A stretch of 64,000 nt of DNA, taken from the NCBI GenBank assembly GCA_046346885.1, contig JAXMHI010000001.1:291390-355389 (forward strand). Direction: 5' to 3'. The position numbers and the translations under genes were made by a program. Source of the stretch: a bacterium (lineage in GTDB: Bacteria > UBA10199 > JADFYH01). The notes under the pieces are model-generated. The model was given only the letters and a program-made list of their open reading frames with translations. It ran no database searches and was not told where the DNA came from. Shown in pieces: positions 55,769 through 64,000 of the stretch (the first letter of the stretch is position 1; every line of letters starts with the position of its first letter).

Positions 55769-57301
55769 TCAGGAAGGATCCACGGGAGGGGAAGCTTCTT
55801 CCGGCGCGGGAGGCAGCAAGGAAGGATTGGGTTGAGAGCGGATGTTCAGGAAATTTATACCCCTTCGTAGGCGTAAAAAGAATGCGGGATCTCCCCACGG
55901 TGAAACGGCGTCGATGCGATAAGATCGTCCCCTTTTATTCCACGAACACGCTTCGACGGTGGTTTCTCCGGGAACGATCAAGTCGCTTCGCGAGAGGATG
56001 TGGAAGATCCGAGGGTTTTCGACGCGAATCACGTTGAAGGCTTTTTGCTGCAACGCCGCTTGCGTGGCCAACCATTCGAGAAAAAGGCTGCCCACGCCGG
56101 GAAGCATCTTGTCAGTGACGATCTTGTAAAGGTTGATGGCCTCCGGTTGCACGTAGACCTTGGCTTCGCCGATTCGGTTTCCCTCGCGAAGGCGGAAATG
56201 GAAGACGGGGGTTCCCTCGGGAAAATAATCGTCCCTCTTGCGCGATTTTTCCACGTGAGTGATCTGGAGGAAGACTTCCCTCCCTTCGCGCAGGGCCATT
56301 ACTCTCTCTTGGCGGTATTTTTGAAGACTCGACCAGTCTTCTAAAATTAATTCGTAAGGATAGGACTGTTCGTTTCCTTCCTCGCTTCTCGAGGTGAGAA
56401 CCCGTTGAACGCGGAGAGGAGGAGGAAGCTTCGGGGTTACTTCTGCTTCCTCGGCGGGAGGAGCGATTTCGAGAGAGAATTTCTCGTTCCGATTTCCTCT
56501 TTTCCCACGGACAACAGGGCCCGGTCGCGGGGCAGGAACCCCATTTTGCATGAGCATTTTCACTTCGGAGATTGGAGAGAAAAATGGTCGTGCAGGAAAA
56601 AAGGAGTCGTAACGAGAGCGGCGGATCGAAAAATCCAGGCTCCTTTCCAAAATCGAAAGTCCCGGAGCGGCCCGATGGAGAAGCCCCATGCCCAAACCCA
56701 TTTGCAAATTCGTAACCTCCGCGTGGAGGAATTGCTCCGCGAGATTTCCATCGGGGGCGCTCGTCCAACCGAGCCGCGCGGTGGCTTGATGGCCGGCCAC
56801 CATCGCCGTGTCTTGAAGGAGGTGTTGGAAGAGAGCGTTTTGTCCTTGGGTCGCAGCGCCGCCGATTTTAAGAAGGCCGAATTGAACGAACGAGGTGCGC
56901 CAGCGGTCCCAGTACGAGGCATGTAGGGGCGCGGTTGCCGCGCCCGGGTGGGGAAAACCCGTCTCTAGGGAGGATAAAATGTCGCTTGTTCCTTGAAAGG
57001 CGGTTACTTCAGAGGCCAGTCCGATTCCGTAAGACGCCACCCGCAGTAGGGGGGCCGCTTGCTGCGCCCTTGACGCCAAAACCAAAGTTCCCAAACGTCC
57101 AAAACGATAGAACAACGAGCCGGCCGCCATGGCGGTGAAGGTTCTCCAGTCCCCGGTCTGTTCGACGAAGGCACTGATCATGCCGTCGATGCTGCGTTGA
57201 AAGGTCGTGGGCTCGGAAGAAGCTGAAGAAAGACTCGTCTGGGAGAAACGGGAAAGAACGGTTTCCGGGGAGGGTGTCGAATTTTCAATGGAAGCGGCCA
57301 T
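55769..57301 (-). CDS. Family member, 510 aa, with possible GNAT-like C-terminus
   Basis: Start moved to ATG 57301 (MAASIENS) to match paralog N-termini; KMLPGVGSLFLEWL resembles the acetyl-CoA-binding motif A. Confidence 0.75.
   Translation of the reverse strand: MAASIENSTPSPETVLSRFSQTSLSSASSEPTTFQRSIDGMISAFVEQTGDWRTFTAMAAGSLFYRFGRLGTLVLASRAQQAAPLLRVASYGIGLASEVTAFQGTSDILSSLETGFPHPGAATAPLHASYWDRWRTSFVQFGLLKIGGAATQGQNALFQHLLQDTAMVAGHQATARLGWTSAPDGNLAEQFLHAEVTNLQMGLGMGLLHRAAPGLSILERSLDFSIRRSRYDSFFPARPFFSPISEVKMLMQNGVPAPRPGPVVRGKRGNRNEKFSLEIAPPAEEAEVTPKLPPPLRVQRVLTSRSEEGNEQSYPYELILEDWSSLQKYRQERVMALREGREVFLQITHVEKSRKRDDYFPEGTPVFHFRLREGNRIGEAKVYVQPEAINLYKIVTDKMLPGVGSLFLEWLATQAALQQKAFNVIRVENPRIFHILSRSDLIVPGETTVEACSWNKRGRSYRIDAVSPWGDPAFFLRLRRGINFLNIRSQPNPSLLPPAPEEASPPVDPS
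56923..56968. repeat. GTAG-type REP-like doublet inside a CDS
   Basis: GTAG-GGGCGCGG-TTG-CCGCGCCC followed by the degenerate partner GGGTGGGGAAAACCCGTCTCTAG. Confidence 0.65.
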
Positions 57302-57331
57302 GTTTTCAAAAAATGATCTTCTAAGGGGGCT

Positions 57332-57355
57332 TCGACAGGCCGCGTTAAAAGTTGT
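57332..57355 (-). promoter_or_regulatory. Family promoter-like motif
   Basis: ACAACTT-TTAACGCGGCCT-GTCGA; 15-nt spacing. Confidence 0.6.
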
Positions 57356-57375
57356 TTTGCTTCCAAGAAAAAGGC

Positions 57376-57402
57376 GCAACCTCGGGAGGGGGAGAGCGAT
57401 AA
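57376..57402 (+). promoter_or_regulatory. Family promoter-like motif upstream of the DAGK-like gene
   Basis: GCAACCT-CGGGAGGGGGAG-AGCGATAA; 15-nt spacing. Confidence 0.6.
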
Positions 57403-62660: not shown

Positions 62661-62717
62661 AGGGCCGCTACTTTACCCCAGCTGGGGCGGATTGCAAGGT
62701 GAACCTGCAAGAAAATC

Positions 62718-62741
62718 GCAACTTTTCAAGGCAGTTACCGA
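62718..62741 (+). promoter_or_regulatory. Family promoter-like motif
   Basis: GCAACTT-TTCAAGGCAGTT-ACCGA; matches the 12736 copy including GTTACCGA. Confidence 0.65.
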
Positions 62742-62837
62742 GCTTTTGAAAAGGACACATGTCCGATTTCTTAGGGTAGAAATCTCGATTTAATTTTTAT
62801 GACTCTTTCCAACCCCTCATCGTTACGGGAAGGGGGA

Positions 62838-64000
62838 ATGATTTCCGACGCTTCCGTTCTTACCCGTTTTTCCCAGGCGAGCCTCTCTCAGGCCGCTTCC
62901 GACCTCCATCCGACCCAGGCGCTCGTCGACGGCATGGTGAGCCGCTTTGTGGAAGAAACGGGCGATTGGCGTTCGCTGGCCGCCATGGCGACCGGTTCCC
63001 TTTTCTATCGTTTCGGCCGATTGGGCACCTTGGCGCTCGCCTCTCGGGCGGGACAAGCGGCACCGATTTTACAAGTTGCTTCTTACGGGATTGGGTTGGC
63101 TTCCGAAGTGACGGCGTTTCAGGCGGTGAATGACGTTTTATCTCCCGTAGGGGCGAACCTTGTGTTCGCCCAAAATGGGGGGGAAGGGCGAGCACAAGGT
63201 TCGCCCCTACATTCATCGTATTGGGACCGCTGGCGCACCTCCTTCGTTCAATTCGGTCTCCTCAAAATCGGCGGCGCGGCGGCGTTGGGCCAAAATCCTT
63301 TTATGCAGCATCTCGCACAAGATTCGGCGATGGTGGCCGGCCACCAGGTCACCGCGCGGTTGGGCTGGACGAATGCTCCCGATGGAAATCTCGCGGAGCA
63401 ATTCCTCCACGCGGAGGTTACCAATTTGCAAATGGGGTTAGGGATGGGCCTGCTCCACCAAGCCGCACCGGGTCTCGCGGCGTTGGAGAGGGGATTGGAT
63501 CTTCACCTCCGTTCTGCCGAAAACATTTCCCGCGGAAATTATTTTTCACCCCGAGCGCCGTCGCCGGCCTTCGCTTTGGCGTATGGATCCGAAACTCGTC
63601 CCGCGCCTGTTTCCGATTTCGGAAGGGGAATTGAGGGTCCCACGATCTTGAAGATGGAAGGAGTTCCGAGTGAGCGACTCTTCCCGCGGTCCCTCGAGAG
63701 TTTGATGCCGCCGGAGAAGAGCGGTGTGGAAATTACCGATCCCATCGTTTATCCGCCGGAAATCGAGCGAATCCTTCGATCCGTCGAAGAAAGAATGCGC
63801 CAGCCGGGATATTTCGAGGGGAGGCGGGAAGAGCTCTTGAACAAGCGGCCTTTAGATGATGAGACGGATACCCTTTTCACCTATCAACTCTTAAACCTCG
63901 GACGGCGCTTGGAAGCCCGCATTCCCGGAGCGTCGGTTCAAGTGGTAGACGCGGAAGTCCTTTTTGAAAAATCCTTTTCGCGCGATGAGGAGATCGATCC
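62838..64000 (+). CDS. Fourth family member, 3'-truncated by window edge (not in the ORF track)
   Basis: Manual translation MISDASVLTRFSQASLS...DGMVSRFVEETGDWRSLAAMATG...AEQFLHAEVTNLQMG...; open to the window end. Confidence 0.88.
   Translation, partial: MISDASVLTRFSQASLSQAASDLHPTQALVDGMVSRFVEETGDWRSLAAMATGSLFYRFGRLGTLALASRAGQAAPILQVASYGIGLASEVTAFQAVNDVLSPVGANLVFAQNGGEGRAQGSPLHSSYWDRWRTSFVQFGLLKIGGAAALGQNPFMQHLAQDSAMVAGHQVTARLGWTNAPDGNLAEQFLHAEVTNLQMGLGMGLLHQAAPGLAALERGLDLHLRSAENISRGNYFSPRAPSPAFALAYGSETRPAPVSDFGRGIEGPTILKMEGVPSERLFPRSLESLMPPEKSGVEITDPIVYPPEIERILRSVEERMRQPGYFEGRREELLNKRPLDDETDTLFTYQLLNLGRRLEARIPGASVQVVDAEVLFEKSFSRDEEID
63147..63210. repeat. GTAG-type REP doublet (inverted pair) inside a CDS
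   Basis: GTAGGGGCGAACCTTGTGTTCGCCC-N14-GGGCGAGCACAAGGTTCGCCCCTAC; arms are 24/25 complementary. Confidence 0.8.

Follow-up and report, generated by a model that had tools for sequence, protein, structure and literature searches.

Two different GTAG REP dimers translated in frame at the same nucleotide position of a helix connector in neighbouring paralogues of a UBA10199 genome

In-frame palindromic mobile DNA is reportedly known from Rickettsia, where the Rickettsia palindromic elements (RPEs), the subject of 'Selfish DNA in protein-coding genes of Rickettsia' by Ogata et al. in 2000, are said to be translated and to be tolerated in surface regions of proteins. Inverted pairs of repetitive extragenic palindromic (REP) elements forming hairpins (REPINs), and REP-associated tyrosine transposases (RAYTs), are reportedly the subject of work by Bertels and Rainey in 2011 and by Nunvar in 2010, together with the TnpA-REP system of E. 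coli. Intragenic GTAG REPs have been described as small GC-rich stem-loops that carry GTAG unpaired at one end and for the most part form dimers with GTAG outside; dimers within open reading frames (ORFs) add 20-30 amino acids, and different REPs lie at about the same site in recB of two Xanthomonas species (Di Nocera, De Gregorio and Rocco 2013, BMC Genomics 14:522, PMC3733652). Translated in-frame GTAG REP dimers are therefore already known from that study. Here, a stretch of 64,000 nucleotides, referred to as the window, was analysed from a metagenome-assembled genome (MAG) of the lineage UBA10199 (G000, contig C1, positions 291390-355389; 2.76 Mb in 25 contigs, 54% GC, 82% complete). Two neighbouring genes in the window, paralogues 1 and 2, share an N-terminal domain, the head, and carry two different REP dimers, A and B/E, at the same nucleotide of the same loop of that domain. 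The features concerned are as follows.

62838..64000, + strand: paralogue 1, 1161 amino acids in the full genome, leaving the window, with its ORF open from 62799; head at about 62838-63530, REP insert at residues 104-124
63136..63146, + strand: left flank TTTTATCTCCC, coding for (V)LSP, a candidate target motif
63147..63210, + strand: type-A GTAG REP dimer, heads outside ('HH' in Di Nocera's terms; REPIN-like), with left arm 63147-63171, spacer 63172-63185 and right arm 63186-63210
55769..57301, - strand: paralogue 2, 510 amino acids, with the B/E dimer in the same head loop as in paralogue 1
56923..56945, + strand: type-B GTAG REP, consisting of GTAG, the 8-bp stem GGGCGCGG, loop TTG and CCGCGCCC; a perfect hairpin with a 3-nt loop
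56946..56968, + strand: decayed type-E REP arm GGGTGGGGAAAACCCGTCTCTAG, a weaker hairpin, matching the consensus partner GGGCGGGGAAACCCCGCCCCTAC at 18/23 bases

An earlier note on this DNA had reported a 64-nt inverted pair in the gene starting at 62838 and a different 46-nt GTAG-type element, at 56923-56968, in the gene starting at 57301, and both descriptions hold. The type-A element of 64 nt comprises two 25-nt arms, GTAGGGGCGAACCTTGTGTTCGCCC and GGGCGAGCACAAGGTTCGCCCCTAC, that are complementary at 24/25 positions (96%) and are separated by a 14-nt spacer. The whole element folds as one 25-bp hairpin (-30.7 kcal/mol, z = -10.7 when compared with shuffled sequence, as single-stranded DNA), and each arm alone forms an 8-bp stem with a 5-nt loop. 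GTAG at 63147 and CTAC at 63207-63210 provide the unpaired tetranucleotides of a GTAG REP, and the element is translated as VGANLVFAQNGGEGRAQGSPL. The second element consists of a perfect 8-bp hairpin, type B, and a decayed second one, type E, which form a heterodimer with heads outside. In the coding (-) sense the type-B hairpin is the 3' arm and terminates in ...CGCCCCTAC; the type-E arm, with 5/23 mismatches, is decaying, and its outer end reads CTAG in coding sense, GTAG being found at 56923. The translation on the - strand is LETGFPHPGAATAPL. Both types agree with the definition of GTAG REPs as GC-rich stem-loops of 20-40 bp with stems of 5-13 bp, and both show the arrangement, frequent in GTAG REPs, of inverted dimers with GTAG outside. 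Two inverted REPs folding into one long hairpin, the form of a REPIN, are found in type A only, the arms of the B/E element being of different REP types.

Public genomes were searched for type A and public metagenomes for type B; statistics on arms and partners given here apply among the matches listed. The type-A pattern GTAGGGGCGAAYCTNGTRYTCGCCC matches at least 120 loci in more than 10 phyla, with hosts including Armatimonadota, Geobacter, Thermodesulfobacteriota, Deinococcales, Acidobacteria, Chloroflexi, Planctomycetota and Aminicenantes. The window arms agree with the cross-phylum consensus at 25/25 and 24/25 positions, the left arm being the commonest type-A variant (98/156 copies). An inverted partner lies 6-42 nt away in 64/155 foreign type-A copies, and pyrimidines prevail at the two positions (-1 and -2) that precede GTAG. 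The type-B pattern GTAGGGGCGCGG-N3-5-CCGCGCCC matches at least 119 metagenome contigs, and 50/149 copies are full GTAG...CTAC palindromes. Among 99 non-palindromic copies, 18 have the partner GGGCGGGGAAACCCCGCCCCTAC within 90 nt, directly adjacent in 2 of those 18; one example, L161, has the same architecture as the window element. The matches in public data, the inverted-dimer form and the match of the decayed partner together identify both window elements as GTAG REP dimers, heads outside, of two different widespread families. Copies of the 25-nt REP GTAGGGGCGAACCTTGTGTTCGCCC that agree letter for letter are found in MAGs as well as isolates, from more than 10 phyla (loci L013-L132). One exact type-A 25-mer, in a UBA10199 MAG (L027), was considered as a head-gene insert and rejected, being intergenic. 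A literature text search for the REP core sequence returned unrelated papers only.

Neither the exact type-A sequence nor the exact type-B sequence recurs within the source genome. A count of both REP types throughout the genome, which the earlier note had proposed, returned one other type-A copy and none of type B. The genome thus holds two type-A dimers and one type-B copy, not the "tens to thousands of copies" by which a REP is recognised within a genome. The second type-A dimer (C10:28177-28235) is intergenic and of a different subtype. It lies between two same-strand genes. The upstream one, ending in ..ERKYGV*, takes its TAG stop codon from the dimer's GTAG, and the opposite end of the dimer adjoins GGGAGATAAAAATG, which comprises the ribosome-binding site and the start of the second gene, a KamA-like one. 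The idea that this copy is the remnant of a head gene was rejected, since it stands between a stop codon and the next ribosome-binding site and its similarity to paralogue 1 ends after the 11-mer TTTTATCTCCC. A few other GTAGGGGC...GCCCCTAC palindromes are also present, one of them at C1:84211, where a relative of the type-E arm, GTAGGGGCGGGGTTTCCCCACCC, is found.

Comparison of the two genes codon by codon bears out the claim that both elements end in CCCCTAC-AT in the same frame just before H.SYWDRW. In coding sense both read ...CCC CTA CAT (T/G)C(A/C) TCG TA(T/C) TGG GAC CGC TGG, and the downstream peptide P-L-H-(S/A)-S-Y-W-D-R-W is shared in the same frame. The two genes have the same junctions, ..TCCC|(G)TAG on one side of the element and CCCCTAC|AT on the other, down to the single nucleotide. 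With the shared AT after CTAC included, the type-A element amounts to 22 codons and the B/E element to 16; deletion of the corresponding 66 nt or 48 nt leaves LSP|SSYW or LSS|ASYW with the frame intact. GTAG...CTAC dimers stay open in 2/3 frames.

To place the two genes, a tree of 76 heads was built with the connector loop masked. Paralogues 1 and 2 group together with a Shimodaira-Hasegawa-like support of 0.87, and the next branch is a head at C3:78938 with the palindrome-free loop LSSVQQPAGSYW. Their heads share 73-75% amino-acid identity and 71% nucleotide identity, and 47-50% of four-fold degenerate sites are identical, where 30% is expected by chance. By these values the two genes are old duplicates with synonymous sites close to saturation. 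Neutral sequence passed down from their ancestor would be expected to be heavily eroded by now, yet both A arms agree almost fully with consensus, the B hairpin is perfect and decay is confined to the E arm. At least one of the two elements therefore arrived or was renewed long after the duplication, and probably both did. Young elements with coinciding junctions imply either independent arrivals at one exact site or the replacement of one REP by another. The best remaining matches to paralogue 1 are paralogues from its own genome, at no more than 72% identity.

The head domain common to both genes is N-terminal, about 220 amino acids long and all-helical. No Pfam family matches it, and a comparison of its model with the PDB gave no matching fold (best E 0.3, TM below 0.25). 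About 85 copies, fused to unrelated C-terminal parts, were found in the source genome by tblastn and genome search. One sister genus of the same family has dozens, no head copies were found at E <= 1e-10 in the other relatives searched, and HMMER returned 681 cluster representatives among 1.84 billion proteins. The AlphaFold2 model of the head, based on an alignment of 42 members, has eight helices, with a mean predicted local distance difference test (pLDDT) score of 82.9 and a predicted template modelling score of 0.75. The REP-encoded residues 104-124 fall in its only long coil (102-127), between helix 4 and helix 5, and pLDDT is below 50 at residues 107-122. The insert is therefore predicted to sit in a disordered, low-confidence connector, in agreement with its earlier description as occupying a loop.

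Alignment of this connector across the paralogues of the genome showed that it varies and that several members hold other dispersed palindromes. In 76 paralogues, perfect hairpins of at least 8 bp occur at 1.08/kb in loop DNA. Head DNA outside the loop has 0.088/kb and the genome as a whole 0.25/kb, so that the loop is enriched 12-fold and 4-fold, respectively (Poisson P = 0.003). Only about 10% of the genome's own paralogues have a hairpin in the loop. The following were identified in loops outside the window.

C9:46640: C-type dimer of CCCCCTTTTTCAAAGGGGG hairpins, read as PFFKGG..PPFEKGG, with 3-4 genomic copies
C24:40228, C22:67914, C16:861 and C5:13581: D-type CCCTCTCCC-N-GGGAGAGGG-N-GGGAGAGGG, read as SPLAGEGRGEG
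C12:115936: a further hairpin

Genome-wide the D type is present in about 36 copies, frequently arranged in inverted pairs that are spaced 65-80 nt apart and resemble miniature inverted-repeat transposable elements. Its palindromic form is CCCCTCTCCC-TGGAC-GGGAGAGGG-CTA-GGGAGAGGG (for example C5:41930-42026, C21:45367-45452 and C21:141247-141347). Every copy in a head loop carries TCG in place of the CTA or TTA of intergenic copies, a change that removes an in-frame TAG. Three paralogues share one and the same 22-nt D arm, although identity at their four-fold sites is at the chance level (0.28-0.39). A further hairpin repeat, ACCAAAGGGCGAGCACTACGTTGCTCCCCTTTGGAAACCCCAT, about 45 nt long, is dispersed over the genome in 10 copies, for example at C3:72226, C12:123449 and C19:163791, none of them in a head gene.

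The same connector holds palindromes in other organisms. REP-type peptides are present in the connector of approximately 35/109 non-self homologues (counted by eye from the list of loops), with at least 10 palindrome types in the loop. The peptides include VGANG(Y/R)SPL, ERAGLKPAPT, RA(I/T)GRSPLQ, VGARSPRPQ..GGETRPLH, FRRGGPMWPP..GHPHGGAPT, VGAGLVSAH..GVPLQ, PPFAKGGQGG and LEGEGRGEGG. Three cases, L264, L266 and L298, were confirmed at the DNA level. The L264 loop contains GTAGGGGCGAACGGTTATTCGCCCCTCC, and the tandem neighbouring paralogues at that locus are without it; in L266 a GTAG...CTAC dimer of 70 nt occupies the loop, and a second dimer, of 67 nt, the linker between head and cargo; and in the sister genus to which the L298 genome belongs, 1/40 sampled heads carries a REP, GTAGGGGCAATTCATGAATTGCCCCTAC, in the loop. 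A scan for REP peptide signatures gave 4.1 per 1000 residues in the loop compared with 0.27 elsewhere, most of the convincing matches outside the loop being in the turn between helices 3 and 4 and in the linker after the head, as in two foreign loci.

L264:6199-6226: in-frame GTAG REP GTAGGGGTTCAAAATTTCGAACCCCTAC in the helix 3-4 turn of a foreign head
L266:1104-1170: 67-nt dimer with a type-E arm in the head-cargo linker

The loop is thus the main but not the only site at which REPs are retained in these proteins. The proposal that it is a hotspot of insertion or exchange supplying protein sequence to the family gains support from the other paralogues, from the homologues with REP-type peptides, from the widespread REP families involved and from the modelled coil in which the insert lies.

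The reading preferred here, to which a probability of roughly 0.78 is given, is that the window holds two different widespread REP dimers, young and translated in frame, in a connector that serves the family as a recurrent site of landing and retention, with a Y1 enzyme as the most likely agent. On this reading the two elements reached one and the same nucleotide independently, or one displaced a REP that was already resident there. Throughout the family, short palindromic mobile DNA repeatedly lands and is retained in the connector between helices 4 and 5, which tolerates almost any sequence and length; a preference for the ..TTTTATCTCCC context, which codes for the end of helix 4, may also play a part. 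The mover would most likely be a Y1 HUH transposase of RAYT type that acts in trans on DNA in single-stranded form. RAYT-mediated single-strand insertion is the best-supported known mechanism for GTAG REPs generally, and it is by extension that we infer it here, along with the target preference and any effect on the protein.

Spread by RAYTs had been suggested in the earlier note. Y1_Tnp genes were found in 14/21 relatives and in 7/10 genomes that bear type A, and none was detected in the source MAG itself. A RAYT flanked by its cognate REPs, as in a REPtron or REPIN-RAYT system, was not found, and the Y1 gene of one relative (G009) has no GTAG REPs nearby. With regard to the target, the 11-mer TTTTATCTCCC occurs 4 times in 2.76 Mb, and 2 of these occurrences abut type-A dimers, in the window and at C10:28166-28176. 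In head genes the 11-mer is native coding sequence for ..(V/I)LSP, near-identical in sister and outgroup paralogues. The window and C10 dimers are of different subtypes, each matching variants in other phyla, so neither is a simple copy of the other. These two sites suggest a sequence preference for the TTTTATCTCCC context.

Several observations weigh against this reading. A search of the source MAG, 82% complete, for Y1_Tnp (PF01797) gave 0 matches, and no type-A REP was present in the 1.5-kb flanks of 12 Y1 loci from type-A-bearing genomes. The TTTTATCTCCC flank was not seen at the type-A copies of other genomes. Types A and B are nearly single-copy here and so give no sign of activity in this genome. 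No ortholog with an empty site was found, the 90% protein cluster of paralogue 1 having one member, and the collections contained no near-identical strain of the source genome. REPs at two other flexible sites of these proteins fit tolerance at least as well as targeting, and the single REP among 40 sister-genus heads indicates that frequency depends on the REP load of the host.

A more specific version, put forward tentatively and rated as doubtful, is that the connector is a reusable docking site. One REP dimer would take the place of a resident one by way of the GTAGGGGCG/CGCCCCTAC ends that they have in common, either a RAYT-type enzyme or conversion driven by microhomology making the exchange, perhaps with a contribution from a preference for TTTTATCTCCC-like codons at the end of helix 4. 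If this were true, REP exchange would be a cassette mechanism making new loop sequences in about 85 address-tagged proteins per genome. A related possibility, considered unlikely, is that homologous recombination or gene conversion copies loop cassettes between heads, in the same cell or from related bacteria, through the conserved helix-4 and helix-5 flanks or the GTAGGGGCG/CGCCCCTAC ends. Such copying would explain the identical D arm in three otherwise diverged paralogues, and it is in keeping with the lack of a detected RAYT in the MAG, with the abundance of partners among about 85 homologous heads and with the 9-nt ends that all GTAG types have in common. However, the source genome has no donor head gene with type A or B/E, the sequence flanking the inserts follows the paralogue tree, and the only other type-A copy is intergenic and of a different subtype. 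Descent from one ancestral REP dimer in the common ancestor of the two genes, with both present elements as its diverged descendants and neither a second event nor a hotspot, would account for the grouping of paralogues 1 and 2 and for junctions identical to the nucleotide. It is judged very unlikely, because each element is an almost perfect match to a different REP consensus from other phyla even though synonymous sites are near saturation, because conversion of the stem GGGCGAAC/GTTCGCCC to GGGCGCGG/CCGCGCCC needs three compensated pairs, and because many other REP types occupy the same loop elsewhere.

The recurrence could also reflect selection and not insertion bias, if hairpins were kept for a function such as pausing translation or transcription after the first four helices, or stabilising the mRNA. 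Intact hairpins in genes with saturated synonymous sites, and different hairpins at the same place in many homologues at 12 times the density of the rest of the head, are what this explanation would predict. Most paralogues lack a hairpin, however (one is present in about 10% within the genome and in 1/40 sister-genus heads), the larger subfamily instead conserves a peptide motif with free synonymous variation, and the E arm of paralogue 2 is decaying; a general functional role for the hairpin is accordingly unlikely, and quite improbable as the cause of the pattern. Chance sequence or an assembly artefact in a GC-rich MAG is scarcely credible. MAG assemblies can be chimeric at repeats and type B is unique in the genome, but homologous in-frame coding sequence continues on both sides of the elements, the fold has a z-score of -10.7, exact matches to the REP families occur in hundreds of independent records, and the same phenomenon is seen in independent metagenome contigs.

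Two further heads in the window are without a palindrome.

11937..12650, - strand: head copy with the loop ATGDRSNPNLWRWSGQGGW, the conserved peptide motif of the larger subfamily
54801..55557, - strand: head copy of a 2305-aa paralogue with the loop ASGDRNNPHLWQWSGQGGW and with its 5' part broken up among three reading frames

At the loop position, within 11937-12650 and 54801-55422, these two copies read ..GDR(S/N)NP(N/H)LW(R/Q)WSGQGGW, as the earlier note had observed in the form DR.NP.LW.WSGQGG. The conserved motif SGDRSNPNLWRW was considered as a fossil REP (GGCGATCGC...) and rejected, given its protein-level conservation, free synonymous variation and lack of a palindrome. The head of the 2305-aa paralogue is distributed over the ORFs 55192..55557, 55082..55330 and 48270..55187, corresponding to two frameshifts in the helix 3-4 part, and the alternatives for this split head are a pseudogene and an error of assembly. 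The interval separating the two paralogues with REPs contains a gene for a 914-aa protein with a weak diacylglycerol-kinase-like match (57503-60247, + strand), a small lipoprotein-like ORF, and a gene for a 602-aa Ser/Thr kinase with a PEGA domain (60852-62660, - strand).

In-frame REPs are usually seen as rare accidents in unrelated genes; here one loop gathers them repeatedly, in several uncultured lineages and with at least 10 palindrome types that are unrelated to one another. The family is a natural test bed for whether REPs choose targets or replace one another, for the spread of REP families that are nearly identical across phyla, and for how much new protein sequence REP-type elements contribute. 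For annotation, peptides such as VGANLVFA..GSPL, RAGLKPAPT and GEGRGEG in this family should be regarded as insertions and not as family motifs.

The comparison with the RPEs of Rickettsia, made in the earlier note, stands as an analogy of outcome, both being in-frame palindromic mobile DNA in protein-coding genes; it does not extend to membership of one family. The RPEs, among which the families RPE-1 to RPE-8 are distinguished, are about 100-150 bp long, not known outside Rickettsia, CGTC-tagged where tagged, probably unrelated in sequence and spread over many unrelated genes, whereas the elements described here are 46-64 nt long, carry GTAG and lie in one loop of one family. Type A resembles REPINs in its two inverted REPs, short spacer, single long hairpin and GTAG head, and the Y1 transposase genes of most relatives are a likeness to REPIN-RAYT systems. 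It differs in having two copies in the genome, no RAYT gene and a copy in coding DNA, and the B/E element, a heterodimer without a long hairpin, is more like the bacterial interspersed mosaic elements of E. coli (in part after PMC3733652 and PMC6006769). Most closely comparable are the GTAG REPs of Di Nocera et al. (2013), which likewise form dimers with GTAG outside that are translated within ORFs. Those REPs lie in scattered housekeeping genes, whereas here they are found in one loop of a paralogous family of about 85 members, with at least 10 palindrome types in that loop, at the identical nucleotide in neighbouring paralogues and younger than the duplication, in a genome that is REP-poor and has no detected RAYT. 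Three findings are new: at least 10 palindrome families are concentrated in a single connector of one expanded protein family, in several lineages; two REP dimers that differ from each other occupy exactly the same nucleotide site in paralogues that are neighbours; and there is evidence for inserts younger than the genes that carry them.

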